Source: Octopus vulgaris (lineage: Eukaryota). From it: 64,000 bases of DNA. Within the stretch, counting starts at the first letter, position 1, and each line of letters opens with the position of its first letter. The stretch is taken from contig OX597817.1 of NCBI GenBank assembly GCA_951406725.2, positions 92,752,001-92,816,000 of the forward strand, in the 5' to 3' direction. Of the stretch, positions 8,308 through 58,258 are shown piece by piece. The translations under genes and the position numbers were made by a program. The notes beneath the pieces are model-generated. The model saw nothing but the letters and a program-made list of their open reading frames with translations, did not search any database and was not told the DNA's origin.

Positions 8308-8341
8308 ATTGCATTGGGACTCCTTTCATCGAAAACCGGTG

Positions 8342-11300: not shown

Positions 11301-13271
11301 TTCCAGGCAGGTCGATCCAGGACAATCTTCACCTTATACGCTACACCTTAGATAGGGTGGGTAAATTAACCGGCATTTAGACCAAAGTAAAGCGTTCGAT
11401 TGGGTAGACCATAAGTACCTGTCGACGGGCCTCGAAGCGGCTGGACTGGGCCCTGAATTTCGCGGGTGGATCTCCGCTATGTATAGCGGCATCACGTCCA
11501 CCGTCCAGATAAACGGTTACCTAACGGAACCGTTTACGATTGAATGTTCAGTTCGTCAAGGGTGCCCCTTGTCACCACTTTTGTACGTGTTGGCTCTCGA
11601 GCCAATGCTGCGAAAGATGGAGAGGCTGGGAAGTAACCCGGATGAGATCGGAGGCGGGAGGACGGTTTCTGCTTATGCGGATGACGTCACCCTCATCGTG
11701 TCCAATGAGGCTCAGCTACCTTGTGTAGAAGATGCTATCAGAGGATACGAGGCGGTGGCAGGAGCAAAAGATAACAAGGACAAGTCGATTGGCTTACGCC
11801 TCGGCACCTGGATGAGCAAGTCGATATCGTCCAGTGCCGTGGGACACTGGACAGATTGTCCTGTTAAGTTGCTATGAGTTTGGTTGGGGCCGGACTCCCA
11901 AACGGAGAGGAATTGGAGTGAGGTGACGGACAAGGTGGAGGCCATAGTACGGACCTGGTCCGGAAAGTTTCTGTCCTTGAAAGGAAGGACGGAGGTGGTA
12001 CAGATGTTCATTGCATCTGTAATCACTTACCGCCTGACCGTTGTCCCTTGCCCGATTCATGGCTTAGCAAATTGGAGTGAATCCTTTTCCGCTTTTTGTG
12101 GAAGGGAGGAAAGCCACTTGTAAGGCGCTCCGTTTGCTGCCAGGAACCGTTAAAGGGTGGGTTAGGAATGCCTTGGTTGATGATGCGCAGACATGCGCTG
12201 AGGCTGAAGCATCTCTGGCACCACCTGGAGGGTGTTAAGGTGTGGAGTCCGCTGGCAGGGGAATTTTTCCCGAGACCGGCTTCCTTAGTGAATTTTAAAC
12301 CCTGTTGCATCAAAAGACGGTATCTGACTTTATGGCAAAAGGAGTGCAAACAGGCACTCACGCTGATCCACAAGGCGGGCAAGGCCGGCTGCGGAAATAC
12401 CACCTCGGTATTTTATAGCAGGCTGGTAGAGGCAAAGAACGACGTCGTCCTTGGAGGGGCTATTGGGTTTGACGAGGACCAGCTTACCAACCTGTTTAAA
12501 AAGACTTTCAGGACGGGGTATTTGGATAATTACCAAAGATCCCTGGCCTGGCAGTGTTATAGGAATGCTTTACCTGTTCGCGAGAAGTTATCGCGGCACG
12601 GAATTTCAGTGTCACCGACGTGTCCAAGATGCGGGTTGGAAGATGAAACCGTCCAGCACGCTTTTGTACACTGTCGGCAGTTGTCAGACTTGATAAGTTA
12701 CGCAGAACACGTGTTATCGCATCTGGGACGAGTACAGCTGTCGGCTGAGTCTATGATTAAGATGATACCGCCAATTGGACTCTCGAAGGAAGGTGAGGCA
12801 TGTTTTCACTGCACGGTTGCAGTAGTAAAAGAATGCATGTGGCGTACAAGAATGGAAGGAGTCGCAATAGGATCCTTTGTCTCAGGCCCCGGCTTGCTCA
12901 CTTACTTCAGATATCATCTGAAGAGCAAAATAGGGCTGGAAAAGAAGACCTTACCACGAGGTGTGTATGAAAAAAGATGGAAGGAAGTGACGAAAAAGGT
13001 GGGTGTCAGAAACCCAGTTTAACTATGGATGGAGAAGAGGAAAGGAAAGCTGCGGGGCCTTATAGGTTGCCGGGGTTTAAAATATATCGGTAAGATTTCA
13101 ATCTAATGTAATGTTATATTAGTCAATGCAAAGGACAATTTAAATACAGTTTTTTGTATAATGAATAATCCATATATTGTGGAAATTTTAAAACGAACCA
13201 CTTAACTGTTTTGTATGTATGTCCTGTATTGTTCTTCTATGTACTGATTTTATAATCGTAATAAAGAATTA
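8342..13271 (+). mobile_element. Tx1-clade LINE A (near full-length, disrupted ORF1 and APE-RT ORF2)
   Basis: ORF1 has an RRM-like region and CCHC (CFKCGEKGHVHSNC). ORF2 runs ~9663-13022 with APE (GDFN, IDR, TDH), RT (QGCPLSP, YADD) and a C-terminal CPRC..ETVQH knuckle. TSD ATCGAAAAC(C/T)GGTG at 8328-8341 and 13272-13285. Confidence 0.93.
9663..13022 (+). pseudogene. ORF2 of Tx1 LINE A (APE endonuclease, RT, Zn knuckle), several frameshifts and stops
   Basis: ORF fragments 9883-10935, 10808-11380, 11479-11877 and 12096-13022. Confidence 0.9.
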
Positions 13272-13285
13272 ATCGAAAACTGGTG

Positions 13286-16200
13286 TTTTTTTAATTTTTC
13301 CTCGGAGTATATCAAATATTTTTCTGTTGCTGCAAATCGTTGTGTGACTTCGTTTCCGTTTGTCTGCTTTGTTGTGTTACACGTAATATAATTGTTGAAT
13401 TGTTTTTGACCCAGTAATTTTCGCCCTTCGGGGTAGAAATTTTCTGTGTGTTTATTTTTTGTGTGAACTCTTAACCTGTATAGGTTATTTTTGAAAAAAA
13501 TTCTCTTGTCATTTGTGACAAGTTTGTGTTGTCTAATATGGAATTAGACTTAAGTTCGTGAGGGCGCGTGGCTTAGTGGTTAGGGCATTCGGCTCATGAT
13601 CGTAAGGTTGTGAGTTCGATTCCCGGCGACGCGTTGTGTCCTTGAGCAAGACACTTTATTTCACGTTGCTCCAGTCCACTCAGCTGGCAAAAATGAGTTG
13701 TACTTGTATTTCAAAGGGTCAGCCTTGTCACTCTCTGTGTCACGCTGATTATCCCCGAGAACTACGTTAAGGGTACACGTGTCTGTGGAATGCTCAGCCA
13801 TTTGCACGTTAATTTCACGAGCAAGCTGTTCCGTTGATCGTATCAGCTGGGACCCTCGTCGTCGTAACCGGCGGAGTCAAAGAAGACTTAAGTTCAAAAA
13901 AAGACTTTCCCGAGATGGGAGAAGGTATAACAACTGTTAAACAAAAGGAAACACAGGCAAAACCCAGTTTTTCAGAAGCCGTAGGTGGCGAAGTGGAAGA
14001 AATGGAGGTGTCAATGACTATTCAAGTTCAGACCGCTTGTGCAAAAAAGTGAAGAAACACGATTGGTACCGCCCCCTGAAACTTTACAGGCAATAAGGGA
14101 AAAAATGGTCACCTACAAGGTGTACAATATGACCGACGTAAAAAACGAAATGGTCGAAAAGTGTATGGCACCAATATGGAGTAAAGTTCGTCATGTCAAC
14201 CGAGGTGCAAGAAGCGCTACAGTGGAGGCGCATTTTGAGACGGCGGAAGAAGCAAGGCAAATTTCGACGCAAACGTTGAAAAACGAGAATATAATACTGC
14301 TACCCTTATATTTAGGGTGCAGAACAGCAAAAGTGACCCTAGAAGATATACCAAGGGGCTACGACGTGATGTGGGCGGCAACAGCGGTCATTTTTGATGT
14401 TGAATCAAAATTGACAATTTTGAGTATGAAGAGGAAAATTGCAAAACACTGGAGAGACCAGCAGCTGGAGATGATTATCCAGGTGGAAAATGCGACGCTG
14501 GAAAGCCTACCAGACAGAGTCTTCGTGGGGAGGGGCACTCCATACGAGTTTCGGTGGAAGGACGCAGGCCCAGATGTTTTAAGTGCGGACAAAAGGGCCA
14601 CGTTCGCTCCGTTTGCACAAAGAAAAATAATACGGGCAACGCACCCCCACACAAAACGCTGTGAAGAACGCAGAAAGCAGCAAAGTGGTGAACAAAGTAA
14701 CGACTGGCGAAAGCAAGGAGGAAAAAAAATAGGTCGAACTCCAAAAAGGAGGAAGACAAGAACGAAATGCAAAATGAGAAAGGAAAGGAGGAGGAAATTA
14801 ATACAACAAAAACAAATATAGAAGAAGAGATGGAATTCACGAACGTGTCGAACAAAAGGAAAAAATCCATCACCCCAGACTCCCCACCCGTAACAAAAAA
14901 AAACAACGCAGACGAACAAATTAAAAATATTCTCCAATCCCACCCCGGCGGTACTACATTTATAGGCCAGCACTTTAACAAACCCCAGCCCCCAACTGTA
15001 AAAGGGTTTAAGCCCAATGAAAAAATTATAGGATACACCACAAGGAACGAGAGAGCAGTAAAATTTGTGCAAGCAAGTACGCAGATCAGGTGCTACAAAG
15101 TGACCGAGAAGGAAGCGGAGTGGCGATATGCAAGGGTCGGCGAAAAAAGATGGAAAGGAAAAAACTTACAAGACCTCGTAAAAGCCGGCTTCATTAAGGA
15201 TGTCACCCAGGAGGTGACAACTGGGAAATTATACGTCAGCCCGGCAGCCACACCAACCCAGAGCCCGGTGGCAACGCCGGTGAAACGCCCAGCAGCAACG
15301 GCGAGTGTGTGGGAGACAGGCAGAAGGAATCTGTCAGGCTCCCTCTCGCAACCGTGAGTAAATAATTATCTTTTTTTTCGATGATTAAGTTAGGTTTATA
15401 AATATGCGTGGAATGGAATCGAAATGGAAACAGGCTTGTTTTCGGGACGACCTCATTTCACATAGAATCGATGTAGCTATTATTACCGAGTCCAAGATGA
15501 AAGGACCCCAAGCGTTCTCACCACTTGGACTTACAGGTAAGTACTGTCTTTCTGGACCCAGAAGGTAGGTTGGTTGTCCTAGATGTGACGCACGTGAGTA
15601 AGCAGTCCTTCAGGTTGGTGGCTGTCTACGCTCCTAATGGACGTGGGCAGACCGGTTTTTTTCGGGAACTGGAGCACTTTCAAGTGACGTCGAAAACGGT
15701 AGTCTTGGTAGGGGATTTCAACACCATTCTCGATGCGCGGGTGGATGGTGTAGGCTCGAGCGATAGGAAGGGGAATCCTGGCCTCAAGGCTCTACTAGCG
15801 AGCTTTAATCTAGTAGACCGTTTTCGACTGGATGAGACGAACGTTCCACAGTGGACGTGGAGTAATATCGACGGCTCACGCAGATCGTACATAATTAGAG
15901 TATTTGTTAAGGAACGAGATAGGAATAGTGTTAGCTGTCCACAATTCGCTGTTGTGCCTTACACGGATCACAAACTTGTGACGTGTGAGGTACAGGTAGA
16001 TAAATGCCATAGACAAGGTCCCGGGTACTGGAAAATGAACAAGTCTATTTTGACTTGTGAAGCTTTCCGTACCCGGATTAAGAAATTAGTACAGAGGGCA
16101 TTATGTGGCACCATCATTAATAATAGATGGTGGCTCGCCCTCAAAAGAGCCATCCGTTTGGAGTCCATTAGATTTAGCAAGCAGCTAAGTTTAGATAGGA

Positions 16201-19020
16201 CTAGAATAGGGGGCGAATTAGTTAAGAACTTAGACGAGGCTATGGAATCTGGCTGTGCATCCGGAGTGTTGGCAGCGAGAGCGGTATTGTACCATCATCT
16301 CAACGCCAAGCACGAGGGGTGTAGAGTCAGCTAAGTTACGTGCAGGAAAACGAGAAGGTATTAACGTTGCCGGATGGGCCCGTCGTGAGGAGAGTCAGAA
16401 GGGCAAAAAGTCCTGTATTATGTCCTTAACTGACGAGCAGGACCGCAAGATCTATGGACAGGAGGAGATGCAGAAGGTCCTTCACCAGCATTTCGCACGG
16501 CTGTTTGGGGGCGGTGGTCCGCTCGAGCGTGGGGAGACCTTAAAGGACTTCCTAGCTGGTGAGCCTCGATTCTCGGCAGGTGAGGCGGAGTGCTGTCAAG
16601 GATCGATCTCTCCCGCGGAGGTAAGAGGGGTTATGGCCGAGTGCGCCGGGGAAAAGTTGCCGGGGTTGGATGGTCTGCCCTATGAATTTTATTGTTGTAT
16701 GCCGGACTTTTTCGGAGACATACTGGCAAGCGTCTATGCAAACTGGCAACAGAATGGGAGGATTCCCAGCTCTGTGAGTCGGGGAGTTGTGACGCTTGTC
16801 CAGAAAGCAAGGGGGACAGTATTAGTAATTATAGGCCCATAACTCTACTTAATGTAGAGTTTAAGATTTTGGCCAAGGTGTTAGTAAAAAGGCTGACGGC
16901 TGTCGTGGAGAAACTTGTCGGGAAGGCACAGACATGTGCAATCCCAGGCAGGTCGATCCAGGATAATCTTCATCTTCTTCGCTACACTATAGATAGGGTC
17001 GGGAAATTAGACGGCAAAGGAGGGGCATTGGTCCATTTAGACCAAAGTAAAGCGTTTGATAGGGTAGACCATCGGTACTTGGCGGCGGGTCCTCGAAGCG
17101 GCTGAGCTGGGCCCTGGCTTCTGCGGGTGGATCTCAGCTATGTACAGCGGCATCAAGTCCACAGTCCAGATAAACGGTTACCTAACGGAGCCGTTTTCGA
17201 TCAAGCGTTCAGTTCGTCAAGGGTGCCCCTTGTCCCCGCTCCTGTATGTTTTGGCTCTTGAGCCATTGCTGCGGAAGCTGGAGAAGTTAGGAGGCAACCC
17301 TAATGAAATCGGATGCGGTAAGCCTGTTTCTGCCTATGCGGATGACGTCACCCTCATCGTGTCCAACGGAACACAGCTACCTCGGGTAGCAGGTGTTCTC
17401 CATGGATACGAAGCGGTGGCAGGGGCAAAAGTTAACAGGGACAAGTCCATCGGTTTGCGCCTCGGCACCTGGAGGAACAAGCCGATACCGTCCAGTGTTG
17501 TTGGACACTGGACGGATGGTCCTGTTAAATTGCTCGGAGTCTGGTTTGATCCAGACTCCCAGACGGAGAAGAATTGGAGCGAGGTAACGAGCAAGGTGGA
17601 TGCCATAGTACGGAAGTGGTCCGGAAGGCATCTTTCCTTGAAAGGGAGGGCGGAGGTGGCACAGATGTTTATAGCCTCTGTCGTCACCTACCGCCTGACC
17701 GTCGTGCCTTGCCCCGATTCGTGGTTAAACAAGTTGGAACGACTCCTTTTTCGCTTTTTGTGGAAAGGAGGAAAGCCGCTTGTGAGATGCTCCGTGTGTT
17801 GCCAGGAACCGCTAAAGGGTGGACTGGGGATGCCTTGGCTAATGATGCGCAAGCATGCGTTGAGGCTGAGACACCTCTGGTGTTACCTGGAGGATGATAA
17901 GGTGTGGAGTTCGCTGGCAGAGGAATTCTTCCCGCGACCGGCCTCTATGGAGGGATTTACACCCGGTCTCATTAAAGGACGTAACCTGACTTTATGGCAG
18001 AAGGAGTGCCGACAGGCACTCTGGCTGATCCACAAGATGGGCAAGGCCGGCAGCGGGAATACCACCTCGGTGTTCTATAAAGGGCTGGTAGAGGGGAAAA
18101 TGATGACGTCCTAGGAAGGGCTCTGGGGTTCGATGAGGATCAACTCTCCAACCTGTTTAAGAAGACTTTCAGGTCGGGGTATTTGGATAATTACCAAAAA
18201 TCCCTGACCTGGCAGTGCTATAGGAATGCATTACCTGTTCGCGAGAAGTTATCCAGGCACGGAATGTCAGTGCCACCGACGTGTCCAAGATGTGGGTTGG
18301 ACGATGAAACCGTTCAACACGCTTTTGTACAATGTCGGGAGCTGTCAGGCTTGATAAGTTACGTGGAACACGTGTTGTCGCATCTGGGACGAGTACAGCT
18401 GTCGGCTGAGTCTATGATTAAGATGATACCGCCAACTGGACTCTCAAAGGAAGGTAAGGCCTGTTTTTACTGTACGGTGGCAGTATTGAAAGAGTGTGTA
18501 TGGAGAACTAGATTGAAAGGTCTTGTGAAAGGGTCCTTTATCTCTGGCCCCGGTTTGTTAAAATACTTCGAATATCATCTGAAGAGCAAGATGGGGTTGG
18601 AGAAGAGGAGCCTGCCACAGAAAGAGTATATGGAACGTTGGAAGGATGTGATGAGAAAGGTGGGTGAGAGTAACCCAGCTTAATCATCGAGGAAAGGAAA
18701 AATCAGCTGCTGGGATTTATAGGCTGCCGGGTTCAAAATTGAAACTGGTACCTCCCATTCCCTTTCCCTGTACATAACTGTTTAAAATAAAGAAATAATA
18801 AAAAAAAACATACGCAGTAAAAGTTCTCGTGATAAAGGCAAAAGTAAGCCATGGTTTCGTTTCAAGGCAAAGCAAGCCAAGTTTTCGTTCAATTTACATA
18901 AAATTTTATTTTTGTAATTTTTATAATTTCATTCGAACTCGCATAGCATTTTTGTAATTGTTTTGTCCTGTAATGTACCCATTCTATGTCAGATCACTTG
19001 ATCATAATAAAGATAAACTC
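13286..19020 (+). mobile_element. Tx1-clade LINE B (full-length, disrupted), related to A
   Basis: ORF1 starts at ATG 13538 (MELDLSSKKDFPEM after removing the SINE) and ends 15357. ORF2 runs ~15381-18683. TSD at 13272-13285 and 19021-19034. Confidence 0.93.
13558..13883 (+). mobile_element. tRNA-derived SINE inserted in ORF1 of LINE B
   Basis: A box TGGCTTAGTGG and B box GAGTTCGATTCC. 12-bp TSD AGACTTAAGTTC at 13546-13557 and 13884-13895. Confidence 0.9.
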
Positions 19021-19030
19021 ATCGAAAACC

Positions 19031-19091
19031 GGTGATTGTCGTGCGCTGATGACGGGTCAATACCCAGAAACTGCAGTCCGTGCGCATCACT
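19031..19091 (+). ncRNA. Type I hammerhead ribozyme (minimal, palindromic stem III)
   Basis: CGTGCG-CTGATGA-CGGGTCAATACCCA-GAAAC-TGCA-GTC-CGTGCG. Distal stem I is GGTGAT/ATCACT. Predicted cleavage after C19078. Confidence 0.8.
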
Positions 19092-19440
19092 TAGGTTGAC
19101 GAGGGAAGGTTGACCTCCCTTTGCAAATACCAATAGGGCACAGAAAGTGTGCCTATAGCTAGCTGGAGGAGATGTTCTCCTACAAGCTACAGTAACACCC
19201 CATCCTTAGTGGTTAGCCATATTGAGATGGCAAATATACCTCATATATATATATATATATACAAGCATTAAAGACCCGTCGTTGCCGAGTCATAGTGCTA
19301 GTGCATGTATATATGTGTATATATATGTGTACATATTACATGTACATCTATATATATACATCTACACATAAAATGCAAAATTCAAAGTTATATCTTGATA
19401 TCGCTAGTGATTACAATACTCAAAATATATAACAGACTGG

Positions 19441-22400
19441 AATTGTTTTATTATTACCCACAAGGGGCGAACATAGAGGGGACAATACAACCTGATGTGA
19501 AGTCAGATATATGAATGGGTTTACACAAAAGGCGAATTTAAAAATTTACAAAAATTACAAAAATAGAAAAAATCGAATGGGGAACAGACCGGAAGACATT
19601 ACGGATGGAGTGGGAGCAGGTTCAGCTCGGACCCCACGAGCCCCGCCTCCCCACTGATACTTTGGTTTCGTCTAGTTTTACATTTATGTGGTATCATCCA
19701 CTCGCAACTTTCGTGCTACATCTTTCAATCGTTCTTCGTACACTCTCTTAGTCAGGCATTTTCTCCAGCCCTATCTTCCTTTTCAGGTGAAAGATGAAGT
19801 AATTCATCAAACCAGGGCCGGAGATGAACTTGCCTGACCGTAAACCTTTCATTCTCGTCTTCCATATCACCTCTTTCGAAATTGCTACTACAACGAGAAA
19901 ACAATTCTTACCTTCTTTCGCGAGGAAATCTGGTGGGTCAATTTCTGTAATAGACTCAGTCGACTGCTGTACTCTTCGTGTGCTTGACAACAGCTGTTCG
20001 GCATAAACCCACACCTCAGACACGACCGAACAATGAACAATAGCGTGCGGGACGGTTTCCCTATCCCGCTCGCATCTTGGACATATCGGACTGTCTTGGC
20101 CACCGTGCCTTGCGAGTTTATCCCGAACAGGTACAGCTCCTCTGTAGCATTGCCATGCCAGAGACTTCTGGAAGTTGTCCAGTGTCTTCGGCTCGAACGT
20201 ACGTCGGAACAGACTGGTCAGCTGATTATCGTCGAGACCTAGGGTTTCCCCCAAGGTATCTTCACATTCCGTCTCTACCAACCCTCTATAGAAGAATGTG
20301 GTGGAACCTCCACCGCAGGCGTTGCCCGAGTGACGGAATAGCAGGGGAGCCTTGCGACACTCCGTGTACCATGTGCCCAGTTTCGATCTACGATTTAGCC
20401 AGTTTTCCCATCCACCGAAACTAGTGAACTTGGTAAACATCAGTTTTGCTAGCGGAGACCACACCCGTTCACCATCCAGGTAGAGCCACAGATGTCTTAA
20501 CCTCAGCGCATGTCTGCGCATCATCAGCCAAGGCATCCCTAGCCCACCCTTTAACGGTTGTTGACAGCAAGTAGAGCGTTTCTCAAGTGGTTTCCTGCCA
20601 TTCCACAAGACGTAGAAGAGCAGTCTTTCCAACTTGATCAACCACGAATCAGGGCAAGGAACGACGGAAAGGCGGTAGGTGATAACCGATGCGATGAACA
20701 CATTGGCTACCTCCGCCCTCCCTTTCAGGGATAGCCACCGCCAACACCAGGTCTTGGTTACTGCAGCCACCCTGCTCGATACCTCGCCCCAATTCTTCTC
20801 TATTTGGAGGTCTGGACCGAACCAAACCCCTAGCAACTTAATCGGACCCTCCGTCCAACGTCCCACGACGCTGTCAGGAGGCATCGACTTGCCTCTCCAG
20901 GTGCCGAGTTGCAAGCCGACTGACTTTTCACGATTAACTTTTGCTCCTGTCACTGTCTCGTAAACCTCTATGGCCTTGCCTACCCTCTGTAGGTGATCCA
21001 TTTCGGTTACGATGATGGTGATGTCATCCGCGTACGCTGACACCGATTTTCCACTACCTGGCTGTCTCGGGATACCGCTCAGTTTTCGCAGTAATGGCTC
21101 AAGAGCCACCTCGTACAAAGCGGGGAGAGCGGACACCCTTGACGAACCGAGCGCTTGATGTTGAACGGCTTCTTGTCGAAGCCGTTCACCCGAACTACCG
21201 AGTCGATGTTGTCGTAAATTTGGATAATCCACCTGAGGAAGCCAAGGCCCAGCCCGAACTGTGCCAGGGCAGATACCAGGTAGCGATGGTCGACCCTATC
21301 GAATGCTTTAGATTGGTCTAAATGGACCAGTGCCCCACACTTGCTAGAATCACTATTAAACCCCTCTATAGTGTACCGAATAAGATGGAGATTATCCTGA
21401 ATGGTTCAGCCGGGAACGGCACATGTCTGTGCCTCCCCGATCAGTCCATCCGCGACACGCGCCAATCTTTTCGATAACACTTTGGCCAAAATCTTCAACT
21501 CTGTGTTTAGCAGAGTGATGGGCCTGAAATTATCAATGCACTCCCCCTTGCTCGGGTCCTTTCTGACGGGTGTCACTACTCCACGGCGCACAGATCTGGG
21601 TATGAACCCGTTCTGCTGCCAGATCGCATAGGTGCCCGAACAAGTCTGGCATACTCTTATATAACTCATAGGGTAGACCATCTAAACCCGGCGCCTTGCC
21701 CGCGCCGCAGTCCGCCATCGCCTCAACCACCTCCCCAGGCGTGATTGGCCCTTCACAGCCCTCCGCATCTCGCCCCGATAAGCGCGGCAGCCCGTCGAGG
21801 AGGTCCGTAAAGGCCCTCCTCCTATCCAGTCCTCCGCCCTCACCGAAAAGCTGAGCGAAGTGCTTCTGAAAGGCCTCACACATCTCCTCGGGCTTGTTTA
21901 TCAACTCATCTTGTTGGTTCGTCATAGATCGAATCGTGGCGTCGTTACCACGCTGAGCTTCCACCACTCGGGCCCATCTCACGGCGTTGATTCCTTCACA
22001 ACCCATTGCGCGGATCCTAGCCCTGATAATGCAGCCCATGTGTTTGGCCTCGAGGTGCTGGTTTAACGCCAGTCTCTTGGCCGTCACCTGAGCCACAGAG
22101 CCAGTTTTCAAGGTTTCCTCTAATTCCTTAACTAGAGTAGATTCCCTCCTAGCCTCTCTAGCCACTAATCCTATGCTATATTTAATAGACTCGAATTTGA
22201 TGGCTCGCTTGAGGGCATACCACCATTTGTTATTAATGATGGCACCAGATAGCGCCCTCTGAATTATAGTCCTAATCCGGTCTCTGTACTCCTTAATCGC
22301 CAAAAGGGACGTATTAAGTTTCCAATAACCGGAGCCTCTATTTTTAACCTTATCTATGTCAAGCTTACAGGTGACCATTTTATGATCACTGTAGCTGACC

Positions 22401-24522
22401 AGGTAAAACTGTGGACACTTAGCTATTTTTCTGTCTACTTTTCTAATTAGTATCCTATCTATGTATGACCTGGAAGATCCGTCGCTGTTTGACCATGTCC
22501 ACAATGGAGCGTTCGGAAATTCCAACCTATAAGGATCTGCTAGCTCAAAGCGGCTTAGCAGTTCCAGGAAGCCAATGTTACCTTTTCTATCTGGACGCAA
22601 GCCAACACAATCTACATCCGCTTTGCAAATTGTGTTAAAGTCTCCTAGCACAACTAATGAATGCGAAGTACCAAGAAAGTTTTCCAGTTCTCGAAAATAA
22701 TCACTTTGCCCTGTATGGTTGGGTGCGTAAATTGCAACCAGTCTGATAACTTTACAGTTACTGAATGTCAAATCCATGACGACCAGCCTACCTTCTGGGT
22801 CTGAAAAAATTAACCTTTTCTCAAAAACCCGGTTTCTTTTTAATAGGACCAACACTCCACCCCCGCCGGTAGGACTGGCCGGAGAGAAAAAACTCTCGTA
22901 GCCGTCAAACAGCGGGAGTAGACCTCTTGGCCCCTCTAAGCGGGTTTCTGTAGCAACAATAACATCCAAATTACGCGACCTGATATCATTAAGGAAGCGA
23001 CCTTGCTTCCGGCTTGATCCCAGGCCCCGCACATTTAAACAGCCAACATAAATGCAATCCATGACTTACCTTATATCAGTGGTTCGACTTGTTTTTCTTC
23101 TTCTTCTTCACTTTTATTTTTTTCCCGGGCTCGTGGGGGAGTCCGACGCAGGCCCTCGTATATATGGAGATATGTCCATTCTCAGAGGGCCCACGTCGTT
23201 AAAGAATTCGGATTTTATCCGTCCGTAATCCTTCCGGCCTATTCTATAAACAATACAGTCTTTTGTTTTTTTTTATTTTTTCCACCTTGGCCATGGCTGC
23301 CAAAACGTTAATTAGCCTGTTGTTGGCTGCCTTAATGGCCATAAATGTATTCGTCGCTTCTTTTCTCTTTTTTTGTCTCTCTTTCTGAGGGGTGGTTTCT
23401 GTTTTCCGTTTTTCTTTTTGTGATTTTTGACCACCCCTCCTCTTTTTCCTTTTCTTCGCCGCTTGTTGTTTCTGTTGCTTCTTTGGTTTCTGTTGATTCT
23501 TTATTTTCTGGTGTTTTCTCTTTTATTTTTTATTTTTCTGGCGGTGCTGCTTCCTGCGGTCTAGGTTGGCACTCCGCTCTCACGTGTCCCTTTTTACCGC
23601 AGCCGAAGCACCTCGGCTTTCTGCCCTCCACAAACACTATCACCATCTCCTCCTCGCTGATCCTCAATGTCTCTGGAATTTCTTCCAATGTCTGTACTTC
23701 CGTCTGTATCACTATTGAAATGCGTTGGCCTTGCCAATGCCCCTCCTCCTCTACTGTAGCCTGGAGGATATTGATTTTGTCCTCCAGGCCTAACATGACT
23801 GCCGCCACCAGGCATGTGGCGTCTGCCTCTGGGGGAATGTTTCTTATTTTGATTTTCGAGGTCCTTCTGCCTCTGTACAGGGGGAGGTGGACCATATTAT
23901 CGGCTTTTAGTGGTTCAGTTGATAGCTTTTCAGGTATCTCCTTCTGTCCTGAACCTCACCTTTACCGTTCCAAATTTTCTTCCACGATTTATATAAGTGA
24001 TTTCCTGCCATATTGTCTTTAGGCAACTCTCAATTTTCTTTTCTTCCACTCTTTGAATGGACTTCGTTGTTGAGTTGTACGTTTTATAAATAATCCTTCT
24101 TTTTTCCACTTCCTCTATCTTACTGACGTCCGGTGTTACTGATACTTCTGTACCTTCCTTTTTCAGACATGCCGTATATTTTTCCAGGTTGCTTCTTTCC
24201 GTATTAATTGTCTTCAGTTTCTTGCCCGCAACTTCAGAAAACTTCTTAGCTGGGGCTTCTTCTGCTTTCGGCGACACCGCCGGTGAGCTTTCTTCACCTG
24301 ACACAGGTGAATAGGAGATGAATAGATTTTTAAATGTGTTCCACACTAAATGTTCCACAGTAATTCCGCCCCGGGGGGGGGAGGGGAATTAAATACGTAG
24401 CCTTCGCGTGAAGGCTAATGACAGTCTTATACAGAAGACACTATATATCAATCAAAGTAACAGTAATTAAATTAACAAACCGGTATCAACAAAGTAGCAG
24501 CAAATGACAAAACAGACTGGCG
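19441..24522 (-). mobile_element. Tx1-clade LINE C (full-length autonomous type, disrupted)
   Basis: ORF1 ~24358-23070 (CFGCGKKGHVRAEC) and ORF2 23062-19748 (APE, RT YADD, CPRC knuckle). 13-bp TSD TATAACAGACTGG at 19428-19440 and 24523-24535. Confidence 0.93.
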
Positions 24523-24535
24523 TATAACAGACTGG

Positions 24536-26303
24536 AATGATTTTATTACTGTCCACAAGGGGCGAACATAAAGGGGACAATACAATAGGCGAACTTAAAA
24601 TCAGAAAGCGAATAAGAAAAGGAAAAAATAAAAGTAATAATGACATATGAAAGAATATTTACAATGAGATGTAAATGTCCACTCGATCTCCGGAATCAAG
24701 AGGTTACATTTTCGTCAGTTTTATCACAAATATTTCACCAAATTTTTTCTTTTTTTTTTCCTCTCACAATTTTACACATATTCTATGATTTTTTCTACTT
24801 CTCTGAAGTCCATCACTGAATCCTCAGGCAGCCGCTCTCTCACTCGAACCTTCGTGTAAAATATTACATTTTCCCCGGCAGCTCTGAAGAACTCGGCGAC
24901 TACTTCCTCGGGGATTAGGGCAGTCTCCTGCCACCGGTCGGTCATCCTGTTGATCCATACATGTCCCTCCGTTTTACTTGTTATGTCATTCATTACAGGG
25001 CAGAAATGGTAGGTTACTAACTTGTAGTAATAGTAATCTTGTTTCCGTCCTGCGTTTTCCTTCATCTTACTTTTCGGGCTTATTTCTTCCTTGTTCTCCT
25101 CTCTTTGTTTCTCTCTTTCTCTCTTTTTACCTTCTTTTCTTTCTCCTTCCTTCTCTTGTCTTTTTGGCTCTTTGTCTGTTTTCTCTCTTGTTTTATGTTC
25201 CTTTCCTGTATTTTCTTTTACCTTTTGTGTACCGTCCTTTCTTTTCGTTTGATTCTGATCCCTCTCTTGTTTTTTTCCTATTGTTTCTTTTTCCTTTTTT
25301 TTCCTGACTCTGTTTTCGTTCTATTTCTTTCTTTTCTTTTATTTCTTTTTCTTTCATTGACTTCTTATTTCCTTTCTCTTGTTGTTTTGTTTCCTTTTCT
25401 ATGCTTTCTTTCTCATTTACACTATTCTTCTTTTCTTCAAGTTCCTGCTCGCACTCCGCTACGAATTCATATAACGGGCACTGTTTTTTAATGTGCCCCC
25501 TTGTCCCACACAAGTAACAGTTTGGTTTTCTCCCCTCTACAATTACGCTGAGGGTTTTTTCCTCTTCAATTTCAATTCTGTAGGGAAACCTTTCAATATC
25601 CTCTTTTGTGGCCATCAGCCACAATTCTACCCCATATGCTCTCCAGTTTACCGCGTTGGACTCCTTAATTGATTCCACCTCCACTTCCTCTTCTGCTGCT
25701 CCTAGAATAGCTGTTGCCAGCCATTCTGTTTTCACTTCTGGGGGTATATTCGGGATTTTAACACGGACCCCTCTTCTTCCCTTGTATGAGGGCCACATTG
25801 TGAATTTTTGGGCTCTTAGTACGGTGGTAGCCAGTGAGGCCGCAATTTCCTCCGTTGCACATCTCACCTCCACCGTACCAAATTTCTTGCTTCTACTCAC
25901 GTAAGTTATTTTCCCCATTATGTCTCCCAGACATTTCTCAATTTCATCTATCTCCACTCTTGCCAGTTTCTTCGTATTCTTGTCTTGGGTTTTATATGTC
26001 ACCGTCTTGCTTTCTTTATCCTCTTTTGATTTCGCGGGGGGGATTAGCTTCACGCTATCACCCTCCATTTTGAAAAGCTTTTCATATTCTTTGAGTTTCT
26101 CCTTCTCAAGGAACACCTCCCTTACAATTAGCGACGAATCGCTATTTTTCCGGTGAACCCCGCGTAAGTCGCCATGATTAGAGGGTCAATTCACCTTCTT
26201 CGGAAGGTTTCCACACGTAGATGCAAACGCCTCACTCGATATCAAATCAAGTTACAAAGAAAAATTCACCGTCTTGTCACAACTAACAACACACACTCAA
26301 TGA
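24536..26303 (-). mobile_element. ORF1-only (HAL1-like) non-autonomous Tx1 element D
   Basis: ORF1 26175-24772 with frameshifts (RRM-like, CYLCGTRGHIKKQC, K/E linker, C-terminal domain). No ORF2. 3' terminus shared with LINE C. Confidence 0.85.
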
Positions 26304-26310
26304 AGGCTGG

Positions 26311-28294
26311 AATGCTTTTATTACTACCCACAGGTGCGAACATAGAGGGGACAGTACAATCGGGAAAAAAAATTAAATAATGAGATATGAAGTATGTGTA
26401 AATGTGGTGCAATGCCCCACCCGATCCCCGAAATCAGGTGGTTACATTTCGTCATTTTTAATTACATTTTACAATATTTTCAAAAATAACTAAGTACATT
26501 TTACAGCATTTCGCAATACATTCGACCGCAATACATTTCATAAGAGAATTTCCAAAATACATTATCAATTGAATATTTTACAGAAAAATTATTTTCCACA
26601 AATTCATATATAAAGCTTTCATAATACATTTTCAAGATTTCAAAATTCATTTGAAATTAACAAATGTCTTTTCTAATTCTTTTTTTTTCCTATAATTTTA
26701 AATCAGTTCCATTACCTTTGACAGGTCGTTGTAATTTTCCATCTCTCGTGGGTATCTTAGCAGTCGGCACTTCGCATGTCTTATTACGTTCATACCGGCG
26801 GCCTCGATAAACGCATCGGCGCTGTCTTCCTGGACCAGTGCACCCGTTTCCCTCCACTCCGTGCCCATCCTGACCCATGAATATCCCTCCGTTTCACTTA
26901 TTAATTCCTCCATCTCCCCACAGTGTCTGTAATGAACCAATGTTCCATAAAATTTATACCTTCTATTTGAACCTATGTTTTCTTTAGTTTTCCTCTTCGG
27001 ACTTACTTCTTCTTTACCTTCCTCTCTCGGTTTTTCTCTTTCTCTCTTTTTGCTTTCCTTTTCTTTTTCCTTCTCTTGTCTTTTTGGCTCTTTCTCTGTC
27101 GTATGTTCTTTTCCTGTTTTTTCTTTTTCTTTTTGTGTAACATCCTTTCCTTTCTCTTGATTCTGTTCCTTTTCTTGTTTTTTCCTGTTTTTTCTCTTTC
27201 CTTTATTTTACTTTCTTTTTCTTTCTCTTGATTTTGTTTTGGTTCTTTCTCTATTTCTCTATTACTTCTCTACCCTGTGACTTTTGTTCTTTTTCTATTA
27301 ATTTCTTCCCTTTGCTTTCATTTTCCTTCCGTGTGTTGTTTTTTCCTTTTACCGTTGATTCTTTTTCCTTGCTTTCTTTCTCCTTTAGAATATTGTTCCC
27401 TTCTTCGGGTTCTTTTTCCTTCTCTTTTTTGTTTTCCTCTGCTCTTTCACACTCCGCCATAAATTCGTATAGCGGACATTCTTTTTTATGTGTCCTCTTA
27501 TTCCACACCCGTAGCAGTTAGGTTTCCTCCCCTCCACAATTACGCTGAGGGTTTTTCCATCTTCTACTTCTATTTGGAAGGGAACCCGTTCTATATCTTT
27601 GTTTGTGGCTATCAGCCAGATCTCTACCCCGTATCCCTTCCATTTCACTATGTTGGTCTCCTTTATCGACCCAGTTTCTATCTCTTCCTCTGCTGACCCT
27701 AGGATGGCTGTTATCAGCCATTCTGTCTTCAATTCTGGGGGTATATTTGGGATTTTGACCCTTATCCCTCTTCTCCCTTTGTAAGTAGGCCACATGATGA
27801 AGTTTTCGGCTCTGAGTACGGTGGAAGCTAGCAAGGCCGCAACTTCTTTTGTTGCGCACCTCACCTCCACCGTACCATATTTCTTGCCTCTGCACACAAA
27901 GGTCGCCTTCTTCATTACGTCGTCCAGACATTTTTCGATCTCTTCTATTGCTATTCTTGATAGCTTTCTTGTGATCTTGTCTTGTGTTCTATAAATTATT
28001 GTCTTGTCTTCTTTTTCCTCCTTTGCTTCAGCAGGGGGGACCAGCCTCACGCTGTCACCCTCCCTTTCAACGAATTTCCCAAAATCTTTTAGCTGTTCTT
28101 TTTTAAAGAACACTTCTCTTACTGTCAGCGACGTATCGCTTTTCATTGCGGCGACACCCGCGTACGTCTCCATGACTTGAGGGTCGGCGCACCTTCTACA
28201 AAAAGGTTCTAACGCGCAGCGGCAAACGCCTCGCGCGATTCAATTTTCAATTTCTATACACAAAAAATTACTAACTACTTAACGCAATCAATGA
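26311..28294 (-). mobile_element. ORF1-only non-autonomous Tx1 element E (second family)
   Basis: ORF1 28173-26698 (METYAGV..., CYGCGIRGHIKKEC). Same 3' terminal motif. No APE or RT. Confidence 0.85.
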
Positions 28295-28301
28295 AGACTG
28301 G

Positions 28302-30542
28302 AATGATTTTATTATTACCCACAAGGGCGAACATAAAGGGGACAATACAATCGGGGAACTTAAAATAAAAAAGCGAATAAGAAAATGAAAATATAAAAGT
28401 AATAATCACATATGAAAGAATATTTACAATGAGATGTAAATGTCCACTCGATCCCCGGAATCAAGAGGTTACATTTTCGTCAGTTTTATCACAAATATTT
28501 CACCAAATTTTTTCTTTTTTTTTTTCCTCTCACAATTTTACACATATTCTATGATTTTTTCTACTTCTCTGAAGTCCATCACTGAATCCTTAGGCAGCCG
28601 CTCTCTCGCTCGAACCTTCGTGTAAAATATTACATTTTCCCCGGCAGCTCTGAAGAACTCGGCGACTACTTTCTCGGGGATTAGGGCAGTATCCTGCCAC
28701 CGGTCGGTCATCCTGTTGACCCATACATGTCCCTCCGTTTTACTTGTTATGTCATTCATTACAGGGCCGAAATGGTAAGTTACTAACTTATAGTAATAGT
28801 ATTCTTGTTTCCGTCCTGCGTTTTCCTTCATCTTCCTTTTCGGGCTTACTTCTTCCTTGTTCTCCTCTCTTTGTTTCTCTCTTTCTCTCTTTTTGCCTTC
28901 TTTTCTTTCTCCTTGGCTCTTTGTCTGTTTCTTATCTTGCTTTGTGTTCCTTTCTTGTATTTTCTTTTTCCTTTTGTGTGCCGTCCTTTCTTTTCGTTTG
29001 ATTCTGATCCCTCTCTTGTTTTTTTCCTATTGTTTCTTTTTCCTTTTTTTTTTCCTGACTCTGTTTTGGTCCAATTTCTTTTATTTCTTTTTCCTTCATT
29101 GACTTCTAATTTCCTTTCTCTTGTTGTTTTGTTTCCTTTTCTATGCTTTCTTTCTCATTTACAGTATTCTTCTTTTGTGGCCATCAGCCACAATTCTACC
29201 CCATATCCTCTCCAATTTACCCCGTTGGACTCCTTAATTGATTCCATCTCCACTTCCTCTTCTGCTGCTCCTAGAATAGCTGTTGCCAGCCATTCTGTTT
29301 TCACTTCTGGGGGTATATTCGGGATTTTAACCTGGACCCCTCTTCTTCCCTTGTATGAAGGCCACATTGTGAATTTTTGGGCTCTTAGTACGGTGGTAGC
29401 CAGTGAGGCCGCAATTTCCTCCGTTGCACATCTCACCTCCACCGTACCAAATTTCTTGCCTCTACTCACGTAGGTTATTTTCCCCATTATGTCTCCCAGA
29501 CATTTCTCAATTTCGTCTATCTCCACTCTTGCCAGTTTCTTCGTATTTTGTCTTGGGTTTTATATGTCACCGTCTTGCTTTCTTTATCCTCTTTTGCTTT
29601 CGCGGAGGGGATTAGCTTCACGCTATCACCCTCCATTTTGAAAAGCTTTTCATATTCTTTGAGTTTCTCCTCCTCAAAGAACACCTCCCTTACAATTAGC
29701 GACGAATCGTTATTTTTCTCGGTGACCCCCGCGTAAGTCGCCATGATTAGTGGGTCAATTCACCTTCTTCGGAAGGTTTCCACACATGGAGGCAAACGCC
29801 TCGCGCGATATCAAATCAATTTACACAGAAAAATTCACCGTCTTGTCACAACTAACAACACACACTATTTCTTTATTACCCACTAGGGGCGACGAAGAGG
29901 GGACATTACAAGACATGGGGACATAGAACATTATAATTAAATTTATGAAGGATGATTTGTTACATGAAAGAATGATAATATGAAAGCGATGCTAAAGGCC
30001 CCATCCGTTAGCATCACTTACCTGTCCTTTGGTTTTCACCGTCACTTGAATGTTCTTTCCCAATACGAAGACCATCCATATCCATTCTTACTCCGAAATA
30101 CTCCTCCATATTTTCCACGAATTCATCGCTCATTCTTATATCTTTCACCTCCCAATTCTCCCTTTCACACCTCACCATAAATTCATCTATTCTCTTCTTT
30201 TCAATCACAGCATACCTAGTCTCACCAACTTCATACCATTTATACTTTTCCATTAGCCTTTTAACTTCTTTCTGTTCTGTCATAGTACAAATGTTCAGCC
30301 TGGGCTCGATTTCAATCTCTTGTCTGTCTGTATTATTTTTTTCTTTTGTTTTCTTGTTGGAAGGGAGCGGGTGGGTTCACTGTCTGCAGGGATAGGGTGG
30401 GTCTCAGAGGGTGTGGGTGGTGTTGGGGTGGATTGGTGTTCTGTTATTTTCTTTTCCTCGTATTCTTCTCTTCCTCTTATTCACAGCTTCTTTCCATTCC
30501 TGTGAATTCTCTTCTACTGAACTAACAACACACACTCAATGA
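28302..30542 (-). mobile_element. ORF1-only Tx1 element F (same family as D, Zn knuckle deleted, G nested in its 5' end)
   Basis: Near-identical to D. ORF1 29744-28538 with an internal deletion at ~29170. Confidence 0.85.
29867..30519 (-). mobile_element. 5'-truncated ORF1-only-type element G nested in F
   Basis: 17-bp TSD AACTAACAACACACACT at 29850-29866 and 30520-30536. The C-terminal ORF 30283-30014 is followed directly by the shared 3' motif. Confidence 0.75.
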
Positions 30543-30859
30543 AGACTGGCATTGGCAGCTCTTCTTTTTTCTCTACATTGTATACTTTATAGACAATAGT
30601 CTTTTCTTTTCTTTTATTTTTTATTATCCATCTGGACTATTCCGTTTCTGCACGCTAATTATATTTTTAATTTATTCCCATTCATTTGAAACCACTTATT
30701 CAAGTTCAAATCATTGATGCAATTTTATACCAATTGTTATTTTTAATTTTGTATGTTACGATTATATTATACTTTAGTTTGATTTTAATTATTACTTACA
30801 ACATATAATTCAATTGTTATTATTATTTTTATTGTTAAAGTGAAAGCATCTGACATAAA

Positions 30860-31110
30860 ATAGAGAAATATTTTTGTTTCACTTTTAACACGTAATGCTG
30901 GAATAGTGAAGATATGATATTGCTATGGGCTCGCTCTAGGCAAGAAGTTGGACATTTTTTTGCCCGTAAAACTACATGAACCCTAAGTAAGTCATGTGTA
31001 AAATTTGAATGAAATCGGTTGTGTAGTTCTCAAGTTTTAGGGAAACACACAGACAGACAGACAGACAGACACACACACACACACACATTCTTAGTTTTAT
31101 ATATATAAAG
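30860..31110 (-). mobile_element. Helitron-like non-autonomous 5' fragment
   Basis: Minus-strand ATCTTTATATATATAAAAC start, (GTCT)n/(GT)n microsatellite and ACCGATTTCATTCAAATTT motif. Confidence 0.45.
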
Positions 31111-31645: not shown

Positions 31646-32324
31646 TTTCAGTCATTTGATTGTGGCCATGCTAGTGCACAGCCTTTAGTCGAGCAAATCG
31701 ACCCCAGGAGTTATTCTTTGTAAGTCTAGTACTTATTCTATCGGTCAAGTGGGGGTTGTTGTCTGTGGCTTTATTTTTTACAAACAGGGAATCTTCACTG
31801 GATTCAGGATGTTGGTCGGCGTGCGGTGCATCAATATTTTTCACATTAAGTGAAAATTGTTTCTCATTGTGAGAAGTACAGTTTGGGGACGTATCCTTCA
31901 ACCAAAAGTTGTTCACTTTTTAATAGTGTGTGTTTTTACAACAACATTTACTATTTATTGGAAAGCTGTATTTCAAGTGTTCACATGAAGTGAAATTTTT
32001 TTCTCATTGTGAGAACTATAGTTTGGTAACGTATCTTAACCACCAAAAGTTGTCTGCTGTTTGTAAATAGAGTATATTTTTAAAAGTACGTTTACCAATA
32101 ATTGGAAAGCTGTATTTCAAGTGGAGCAGTCCAGGTTCTAATCGGAGCATCATAGGGCTTGGAGTACCTGAATGCCCAGAAGCTTTTTTGCTGTGTTTTG
32201 TTGAACTGTTGTTTTCTTCTTCTATTGGGACTTTCTTATTGAACTGTTTGCTTTTTCTCTTCTTCCCTTTTATTTCCTTTTGATTTCTCTCTTTTCTTTG
32301 AGGGTAAAGAAATTTTGTTTCTTC
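31646..32324 (-). repeat. ~680-bp composite segment with an inverted copy at 57595-58258
   Basis: Near-identical sequence. The same 81-aa spurious ORF (MNNFWLKDTSP...) appears at 31671-31916(-) and 57988-58233(+). Ends in a SINE tail. Confidence 0.9.
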
Positions 32325-35949: not shown

Positions 35950-36290
35950 TGGAACTCCGTCGGTTACGACGTCGAGGGTTCCAGTTGATCCTAGTAACAT
36001 AACAGCCTCCTCGTGAAATTAACATGCAAGTGGGTGAGCACTTCACACAGACGTGTGGCCTCAACGTAGTTCTCGGGAAGATTCAGCGTGACACAGAGTG
36101 TGATAAAGCTGGCCCTTTGAAATACAGGTAAAACAGAAACAAGAAGGAAGTGTGTGAGAAAGTTGTGGTGAAAGAGTACGGAACGTCGTGGAGCTTTAGC
36201 TGTTTTCGCTCAACAAACACGCACAACGCCTGGAATCGAAATCGCGATTCTACGACCACGAGTCCGCTGTCGTATCCACAGGGCCATTGC
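35950..36290 (-). mobile_element. tRNA-derived SINE related to 13558-13883
   Basis: Shares the 3' tail (CCCTCGACGTCGTAACCGACGGAG) and has a degenerate A/B-box head. Confidence 0.75.
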
Positions 36291-37294: not shown

Positions 37295-37520
37295 TGCGCC
37301 CATTTTAGGCCTAGCACGGCTCATGGACCCGGTTTCCCGGTTTCTATGGCGTATGTGTTACCCAGCTGGACGGGACGCCAGTCGATCACAGTGTTCTCCA
37401 TTTTTGCCAGCTCTGTTGACTGGACGCAACGTGAAATGAAGTGTTTTGCTCAAGAACACAACGCGTCGCCCGGTCCAGCAATCGAAACAACAATCTTACG
37501 ATCATGATGCTGTCACCCTA
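37295..37520 (-). mobile_element. tRNA-derived SINE
   Basis: Head CGCGTGGCTTAGTGGTAGGG...GTTTCGATT and core TGTGTTCTTGAGCAAAACAC. Confidence 0.8.
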
Positions 37521-37645
37521 CCACTAAGCCACGCGTTTCCAACTACTATCAAATACTGTCTACAAAATATTTCTGTATATATGCTACGATTTCTTTGAAC
37601 TTATAAAAAGTTATGATTTCTTATGAAATATAAACAACTATCTTA

Positions 37646-57594: not shown

Positions 57595-58258
57595 GAAGAA
57601 ACCAAATTTCTTTACCCTCAAAGAAAAGAGAGAAATCAAAAGGAAATATAGGGAAGAAGAGAAAACGCAAACAGTTCAATAAGAAAGTCCCAATAGAAGA
57701 AGAAACAACAGTTCAACAAAACACAGCAAGAAATCTTCTGGCCATTCAGGTACTCCAAGCCCTACGGTTCTCCGAATAGAACCTGGACTGCTCCACTTGA
57801 AATACAGCTTTCCAATTATTGGTAAACGTACTTTTAAAAATACACTCTATTTACAAACAGCAGACAACTTTTGGTGGTAGGATACGTTTTCTCACAATGA
57901 GAAAAAAATTTCACTTCATGTGAACACTTGAAATACAGCTTTCCAATAAATGGTAAATGTTGTTGTAAAAACACACACTATTAAAAAGTGAACAACTTTT
58001 GGTTGAAGGATACGTCGCCAAACTGTACTTCTCACAATGAGAAACAATTTTCACTTAACGATAAAAATATTGATGAACTGCACGCAGACCAACATCCTGA
58101 ATCCAGTGAAGATTCCCTGTTTGTAAAAAATAAAGCCACAGACAACAACCCCCACTTGACCGATAGAATAAGTACTAGGCTTACAAAGAATAACTCCTGG
58201 CGTCGATTTGCTCGACTAAAGGCTGTGCACTAGCATAGCCACAATCAAATGACTGAAA
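57595..58258 (+). repeat. Inverted copy of 31646-32324
   Basis: See partner feature. Confidence 0.9.

Follow-up and report, generated by a model that had tools for sequence, protein, structure and literature searches.

Five minus-strand retroelements, here named C to G, occupy positions 19441-30549 of a 64,000-nucleotide stretch of the Octopus vulgaris genome (contig OX597817.1 of assembly GCA_951406725.2; hereafter the window, whose numbering is used throughout). Element C is a long interspersed nuclear element (LINE) with two ORFs (open reading frames); D, E and F carry ORF1 only. We consider it probable that D/F and E represent non-autonomous LINE families of long standing, which code for the ORF1 protein (ORF1p) alone and use the ORF2 protein (ORF2p) of a C-like helper. 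Judging from sequence, they would be mobilised in trans while supplying their own ORF1 protein.

ORF1-only elements without ORF2

An earlier note on this DNA had described D, E and F as elements with ORF1, a short 3' untranslated region (UTR) and neither apurinic endonuclease (APE) nor reverse transcriptase (RT), and, small corrections apart, both coordinates and anatomy hold. All three begin with TCATTG and end in 3' UTRs of 240-390 nt. In D, a 5' UTR of ~128 nt from TCATTG precedes an ORF1 that runs from 26175 to 24772, followed by ~240 nt of 3' UTR; the ORF1 comprises RRM-like folds, one CCHC knuckle, a K/E linker and a C-terminal alpha/beta domain, with frameshifts near codon 10 and in the linker. 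E has its ORF1 from 28173 to 26698, frameshifted in knuckle and linker, and a 3' UTR of ~390 nt. Frameshifts are present in every copy of D, E and F in the window and none is intact, and these copies are dead insertions. Pfam found neither APE nor RT in seven pieces of D-G, its one zf-CCHC match being in D. Queried by tblastn with eight ORF2 pieces of C and of a further LINE of the window, B, none of D, F and G had a match at E<=10, and E had chance matches only (best E=1.0); C, B and a third LINE, A, matched one another at E<1e-30.

D and F are near-identical, as had been reported, at 96.1% of nucleotides (1500/1561 aligned; 35 transitions, 26 transversions). E is indeed a family distinct from D, with 67.6% nucleotide identity and, at the protein level, 69% in the N-terminal part and 38% in the C-terminal domain. 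The reported absence of the knuckle from F was also confirmed, as the result of a ~173-bp deletion at TCTTTT microhomology and not as a family trait. Contigs of four of 24 listed public runs (X1, X3, X8 and X15) were aligned to 26298-31030; of their loose ends 24 of 1172 are listed, and of their pieces 31 of ~15,000. In two of the four runs, loose ends at 29171 carry the sequence of D, so the knuckle loss in F is a local deletion.

A tail and a target site in common

That D-G end in the terminal motif of C, also proposed earlier, is well supported. Identity to the last 50 nt of C is 44/50 for D, 44/50 for E, 46/50 for F and 39/50 for G (78-92%), and each of the ten tail pairs among C-G scores above 300 of 300 shuffles (scores 41-80); when A or B is paired with C-G, the ten scores are 16-22. 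The remainder of the C 3' UTR has no homology to the 3' UTRs of D-G, and the 3' ends in the stack lack a poly(A) run. A 3' tail common to a LINE and a short interspersed nuclear element (SINE) is described as a standard sign of borrowed LINE machinery (PMC3747384), and the tail held in common with C fits mobilisation in trans. We count three things towards a borrowed ORF2p: no trace of ORF2, a tail this close to that of C, and ORF1s that are 32-37% identical to the ORF1 of C.

One CCAGTCT site has taken up four insertions, C, D, E and F. C is bounded by an exact 13-bp duplication, CCAGTCTGTTATA, and duplications of 7, 13 and 17 bp occur in the stack. The core CCAGTCT is found at the F/E junction and outside F, and with one mismatch at the E/D junction. 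Because this heptamer occurs 12 times in the window, six of them outside 19-31 kb and not in such junctions, the true target must be longer. CAATG closes the native flank upstream, and the elements themselves terminate in CATT or CAATT; A and B differ from C-G in both tail and target. Neither an Rfam small RNA nor a tRNA (ARAGORN) was found at the target site, and the empty site, as reconstructed, occurs nowhere else in the window and contains no ORF longer than 68 aa.

The upstream flank at 30564-31030 is a repeat of very high depth and so gave no single-copy depth baseline. In a very high-depth repeat beside the stack, 30630-31110, a (GACA)n/(CA)n tract is present, and the end motif may resemble that of Helentron-associated non-autonomous elements; this repeat is a possible host of the target site.

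Amplified families beyond the window

The suggestion that ORF1-only forms are amplified and diversified families, not one-off deletions, is supported by dispersed relatives, by contigs that bridge the ORF1 stop and by shared UTRs. Named protein relatives of the window elements are all octopod (Octopus vulgaris, O. sinensis, O. bimaculoides and Argonauta). The C-terminal domain of D is present in 19 of 336 proteins fetched, on seven O. vulgaris contigs, and 18 of the 19 end at the final residue of D; the corresponding G domain is present in 30 of the 336, on 18 O. vulgaris contigs. None of these 49 entries (46 proteins, three with both domains) matches the APE or RT of C, in a first protein search limited to 181-578 aa and with ORF1 and ORF2 in separate frames. 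Three O. vulgaris models remain open for 379-380 aa across the homopolymer-rich linker.

At the nucleotide level, five listed contigs bridge an ORF1 stop and the 3' UTR behind it, covering at least 31 letters to either side and leaving no room for an ORF2. They are F-type in X1 (depth 287), X8 (58) and X15, which may be an RNA run, and E-type, from a different E copy, in X3 and X8. Single contigs have a depth of ~50-65 in X1 and 6-7 in X8, so the bridging F-type contigs of these two runs lie ~5 and 9 times higher. Continuation into unlike sequence was seen in at most 2 in 100 aligned contigs. Summed contig depth is not a copy number and is used for rank order only, which is G > D/F > E, all far above single contigs. 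An ORF1 alignment of D/E gave no confirmed locus in metagenome contigs, and a tail pattern gave none in metagenome and viral contigs.

Stacks like the one in the window recur elsewhere. Of the 30 G models, ten comprise two or three units of G, and five continue from G into another ORF, of D type in three of them and of E type in two, which is also the order in the window; gene models may splice over long gaps and so give order, not distance. In a run of seven successive accession numbers from one chromosome, all but one belong to D-type proteins. Contigs of two runs have a different tail plus CCAGTCT ahead of the 5' end of E, and a contig of one run has a G-type tail at the canonical site. Protein P0191 of O. 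vulgaris, an ORF1 of another branch (with P0183 and P0187), lies six accession numbers from the D-type P0004 on the same chromosome and may represent a further family in such a stack.

As a side result, many 'hypothetical proteins' of O. vulgaris (P0021-P0049) are ORFs of G or D, some of them spliced onto other sequence (P0047, P0048). The O. vulgaris gene set is contaminated by ORFs of these elements.

Selection on ORF1 and its ancestry

The earlier note had proposed dN/dS below 1 as a check, and this is what the N-terminal part of ORF1 gives between D and E: 0.154 (95% confidence interval (CI) 0.088-0.238), at dS 1.13. For the C-terminal domain, the ratio is 0.34 (CI 0-0.75). ORF1 is under purifying selection, and this applies to an ORF2-less lineage only if ORF2 was lost once. 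D and E share a 5' UTR (score 40, 0/300 shuffles) and, beyond it, the stop context and a 120-nt block of 3' UTR (score 80, 0/300 shuffles). Given these shared UTRs and post-stop bases, a single ORF2 loss before the split of D and E is the simplest reading; taken with a dS of 1.1, they suggest that the loss in this lineage is probably old.

The ORF1 of D, E and F is homologous to those of A and B as well as to that of C. An ORF1 phylogeny, also proposed in the note, was run against A, B and C. In a tree of 37 rows, D, F, E and protein P0001 form one clade (support 100/99), joined by P0172 and P0196 of O. bimaculoides (98/99); C groups with P0170 and P0173 (99/95), and A and B form another group. 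Placing D/E plus P0172 with the clade of C was rejected by the approximately unbiased (AU) test (p-AU 0.008, or 0.039 with P0179 added), and placing them with the G-like P0199 plus P0195 gave p-AU 0.038; these tests covered 22 of the 37 rows under a quick LG+G4 model, with groups picked after the tree had been viewed. Given this rejection and the distance between the ORF1s, D/E did not arise from C by a recent deletion. C is thus a likely helper of D/E, not a parent.

The predicted model of P0001 has two ferredoxin-like domains, 47-132 and 291-360, at a mean pLDDT (a per-residue model confidence) of 54.5. With Foldseek, RRM proteins are among its best rows, none at E<=0.001; neighbours in an atlas are CCHC and RRM clusters, which serve as a lead only. 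The C-terminal domain of D had no usable match in the atlas. A link to ZCCHC3 (atlas score 0.90) was set aside, having support from neither Pfam nor the literature.

Element G

G had been described as the next unit in the stack and as a C-terminal remnant of ORF1. Its position proved different: it is nested 6 nt inside the 5' end of F, between 17-bp copies at 29850-29866 and 30520-30536, and so arrived after F. The description as a truncated element with the shared tail and without APE or RT stands, and its link to ORF1 is indirect, through a linker match and a weak profile match. What G retains is the last part of an ORF1-type linker, a C-terminal domain of 100 aa with its stop at 30014 and, as 3' UTR, 147 nt that end in the shared tail. 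The linker matches protein P0199, a knuckle-bearing ORF1, over 36 aa (56%, E=1.6e-5 in a seven-element database), and one public contig prolongs G upstream, in frame, into K/E sequence. G is 85% identical to an 89-aa O. vulgaris ORF that is present unchanged on nine contigs. G in the window has two frameshifts; near one of these frame changes, contigs of all four runs have a 2-base insertion at 30441 (93% of the X15 depth).

The C-terminal domain of G had no BLASTP match to that of E. A predicted model of it is poor (mean pLDDT 49), with an order of helices and strands similar to the D-type domain, and a structure search with the model gave no match at Z>=5. An ephrin identity, at 21.4 bits in Pfam for a cut-off of 25, was rejected. 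Most likely, G is a third, separately derived ORF1-only family. On sequence grounds it may have an origin apart from D/E, its tie to P0199 being one of only 36 residues.

Alternative explanations

Several observations weigh against ORF1-only families with a borrowed ORF2p. The protein evidence is weak by itself, as gene models can splice past an ORF2 and the two ORFs lie in separate frames. The survey covers the window, the fetched proteins and four runs, one of them possibly the source of the window itself, and leaves room for ORF2-bearing copies elsewhere in the genome; just 24 of the 1172 loose ends are listed. Depth drops about fivefold in the bin of the F stop and is low over the C-terminus and 3' UTR of E, dips that divergent subfamilies (71-79% amino acid identity in that domain) explain, and the stop/3' UTR junction of the commonest subfamily was not directly among the contigs seen. 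Among the ORF1s seen, none is both full-length and intact: at 380 of ~480 aa, the D-type model of greatest length starts at an internal Met. The dN/dS of D against F is uninformative (0.55, CI 0.24-1.67). The hairpin of the tail consensus is weak (-4.3 kcal/mol), with a two-sided change in one of nine pairs. For G, the profile match to the D/E domain has an hhalign probability of 3.6%, a value reached by 1 of 60 shuffles; upstream of the domain, a knuckle or linker is absent from all 30 G models, and one of them, P0044, ends with an endonuclease-like fragment unlike the APE of C.

Autonomous D- or E-type LINEs with an ORF2 might exist elsewhere, the short forms being younger, separate deletions and both the selection signal and the helper role belonging to those parents. 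The sister ORF1 P0172 of O. bimaculoides and the depth dips at the stop regions would suit such parents, as would the Drosophila telomeric LINEs, about 40% of whose families are ORF1-only, with recent ones sharing parental UTRs, as reported in PMC13534243. However, D and E match just after the stop and in the UTR block, so that two separate deletions would have had to break at an identical point; few aligned contigs continue into unlike sequence, and ORF2 is absent from every listed stop-crossing contig. We regard such parents as improbable. A SINE-like G, compatible with ORF1-only D/F and E and concerning G alone, is easier to entertain and still somewhat unlikely: G would supply no ORF1p, and its abundant form would be a short 3' fragment, broken in frame, that depends on others for both proteins and owes its transcription to read-through within arrays. 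It would account for the G models without knuckle or linker, the two frameshifts and a summed depth that is the highest of the elements and declines toward the 5' end. Against it stand the contig that extends G upstream in frame, the 2-base insertion seen in all four runs near a frame change, the 89-aa ORF unchanged on nine contigs and the tie of the G linker, through P0199, to a knuckle-bearing ORF1.

Could the stacks have grown mainly by tandem duplication of DNA and not by repeated retrotransposition, a few old deletion copies having been multiplied when junctions crossed over unequally? Near-identical G-G-G and D-D tandem models exist in O. vulgaris, and D and F may be a tandem pair later split by E. 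The differing duplication lengths, the 5' truncation of G, the mixture of four families at one site, the dispersal over 7-18 contigs and the purifying selection on ORF1 make this very improbable. Hardly credible at all is that misassembly or segmental duplication produced the D/F pair, despite its 96% identity at a spacing of 1.7 kb. The two differ by 61 substitutions with an excess of transitions, their identity stops at the element ends where the flanks diverge, and F-like and D-like sequences both occur in public contigs.

Proposed mechanism and significance

For long-lived ORF1-only families that borrow ORF2p, we propose a model in which a full-length copy would be transcribed from its TCATTG start and its RNA packaged by its own ORF1p, an RNA-binding protein of RRM-knuckle type that is under constraint and whose function would be as in other LINEs. 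The ORF2p of a C-like autonomous LINE would then bind the 50-nt tail that the elements share. Its endonuclease would nick beside CCAGTCT and reverse transcription would be primed there, leaving the observed duplications of 7-17 bp. As the duplication would rebuild the core, and as the element ends CATT or CAATT would mimic the CAATG of the flank, the site would stay usable and permit head-to-tail stacking. The D/E lineage would have lost ORF2 once, before its split, and kept a helper-matched tail despite an ORF1 of another branch.

It is tempting to speculate further that octopods harbour a guild of site-specific ORF1-only lineages with multiple origins (D/E and G), whose tail converged on, or was captured from, that of an unrelated helper. 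The absence of ORF2 from D/E may predate the split of O. vulgaris and O. bimaculoides, some families may outnumber their helper, and G may have moved to the 5' tip of the D family, where it would ride on another passenger. Such a community would resemble that of HeT-A but occupy an internal target, its ORF1p acting in cis and its ORF2p in trans for long periods. We offer this extension tentatively, as possible but short of an even chance.

LINE proteins favour the RNA that encodes them. A lineage that keeps a selected ORF1 and borrows ORF2p is therefore a natural test of the cis role of ORF1p. Further, passenger and helper are about one-third identical in ORF1 and ~90% in the tail, which points to the tail as the recognition element for ORF2p of an L1-superfamily LINE; mammalian members of this superfamily rely on poly(A), according to PMC3747384. 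The tail is a short, testable cis-element, and the C and A/B groups of LINEs offer different tails and targets side by side. For annotation, elements without RT escape LINE surveys based on ORF2 and appear instead as dozens of 'hypothetical proteins' in O. vulgaris.

The autonomous partner and neighbouring sequence

Coordinates of the stack are collected below.

Features of the stack at 19428-30549 of the window
Feature	Position	Strand	Remark
Downstream copy of the 13-bp target-site duplication of C, CCAGTCTGTTATA	19428-19440	-	identical to 24523-24535
Element C, two-ORF LINE (ORF1; APE-RT-zf ORF2), frameshifted	19441-24522	-	5082 bp; Pfam
50-nt 3' tail of C, common to D-G	19441-19490	-	tail alignment
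Upstream copy of the duplication of C; links D 3' end with C 5' end	24523-24535	-	
Element D, full-length ORF1-only	24536-26303	-	1768 bp
Target-core junction copy CCAGCCT (1 mismatch), E 3' end / D 5' end	26304-26310	-	
Element E, full-length ORF1-only, sister family of D	26311-28294	-	1984 bp
Target-core junction copy CCAGTCT, F 3' end / E 5' end	28295-28301	-	
Element F, second copy of the D family	28302-29866 and 5' tip 30520-30542	-	1565 bp + tip
Element G, 5'-truncated	29867-30519	-	653 bp
Upstream copy of the 17-bp duplication of G, within the 5' UTR of F	30520-30536	-	second copy 29850-29866
First six bases of F, TCATTG, and outermost target core CCAGTCT	30537-30549	-	native flank ...GCCAATG precedes

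Both ORFs of C are frameshifted. Its ORF2 contains Exo_endo_phos (APE), RVT_1 (RT) and zf-RVT domains by Pfam, its closest solved structure is human L1 ORF2p (E=8e-6), and its ORF1 is 76% identical to P0170 of O. vulgaris. The layout of ORF2 and its nearest solved relative place C in the L1 superfamily, not specifically in Tx1; domain layout and target preference fit the Tx1 pattern. The RT relatives listed, at least 120, bear no clade names. A type I ORF1 (RRM plus CCHC) is described as consistent with Tx1 (PMC5203782), and such an ORF1 is present here, with zf-CCHC by Pfam and an RRM/ferredoxin-like fold in a medium-confidence model of a relative. The stack elements would thus be Tx1-like. 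At its 5' end (24514-24522, minus strand), C starts on a repeat of the target core, CG followed by CCAGTCTGTT, ahead of a TCATTTG that resembles the starts of D, E and F. The extra core in the 5' UTR of C may be a captured piece of target.

A and B are two more two-ORF LINEs at 8335-19035 (plus strand), head-to-tail at another repeated site, ATCGAAAAC(C/T)GGTG, at 8328, 13272 and 19021. The 3' end of A (13219-13270, plus strand) contains TGTATTGTTCTTCTATGT, a faint echo of the C-G tail; the tail of A scores 21-22 against C and G, matched by 2 and 0 of 300 shuffles, which hints at one ancestral tail motif. Downstream of A/B, a CTGATGA...GAAA core at 19045-19070, without an Rfam hammerhead match, presumably resembles the hammerhead of a Penelope-like repeat. 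In the 5' UTR of B lies a tRNA-headed, SINE-like insertion (13563-13890, plus strand; Rfam tRNA 25 bits, under the cut-off), parts of which repeat at 35954-36134 and 37399-37535. An inverted pair of ~560 bp, 95-97% identical, at 31646-32214 and 57703-58258, 25 kb apart, is a young repeat.

Relation to known systems

ORF1-present non-autonomous LINEs are a known class, for which HeT-A (Jockey), HAL1 (L1) and Ag-Sponge (CR1) are listed by Kojima (PMC5786205). D, E and F share its features: an ORF1 homologous to those of autonomous LINEs without ORF2 (in G, indirectly so), a multicopy state with a fixed ORF2-less structure, seen in some of the subfamilies, the marks of retrotransposition (duplications, 5' truncation of G, a LINE-type 3' end) and, between D and E, purifying selection on ORF1. 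Ag-Sponge of Anopheles arose by internal deletion (PMC5786205, PMC3414825); it differs in clade, and the relevant passages make no mention of site-specific stacking.

C resembles by domain layout the L1-Tx1 group of O. vulgaris, for which 80 consensus families, 13 of them recently active, have been reported (PMC13282606); the sections of that paper available to us describe neither ORF1-only forms nor targets. In our literature search, ORF1-only families of Tx1 type were not found described for cephalopods or for molluscs; Repbase, Dfam, the Zenodo library of PMC13282606 and subscription journals lay outside it and may hold them. Non-autonomous passengers of target-specific Tx1 are described in crocodilians, where SINEU and Tx1-Mar stand in tandem around one target duplication (PMC4494074). 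SINEU is non-coding with a small nuclear RNA (snRNA) head, whereas D-G have ORF1 and no small-RNA head; a SINE class for D-G was rejected, as Rfam and ARAGORN found no tRNA, 5S, 7SL or snRNA head.

The closest parallels are HAL1 and HeT-A. HAL1 encodes ORF1p only, is non-autonomous with several origins and long retention of coding capacity, and likely uses its own ORF1p with ORF2p in trans (PMC5753468, PMC3627910). D-G resemble it in being ORF1p-only and non-autonomous, and may likewise have more than one origin. Their ORF1 is of RRM plus CCHC type and that of HAL1 is Transposase_22; D-G are not HAL1 proper, having no Transposase_22 match, a zf-CCHC and octopod relatives. Unlike HAL1, the octopus elements occupy a single site, form stacks, end in a specific 50-nt tail and have an ORF1 distant from that of their helper. 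With HeT-A they share the mixing of ORF1-only units with autonomous partners in head-to-tail arrays, as described for the Jockey-clade elements of Drosophila telomeres, ~40% of whose families are ORF1-only (PMC13534243). HeT-A is a Jockey element added at chromosome ends, whereas the octopus elements have an internal target, duplications and an L1/Tx1-like partner. D-G therefore act like HAL1 and HeT-A but belong to neither. The class itself is known; what is new is the combination of ORF1-only structure, site specificity, a tail in common with a distant helper and several families in one stack.

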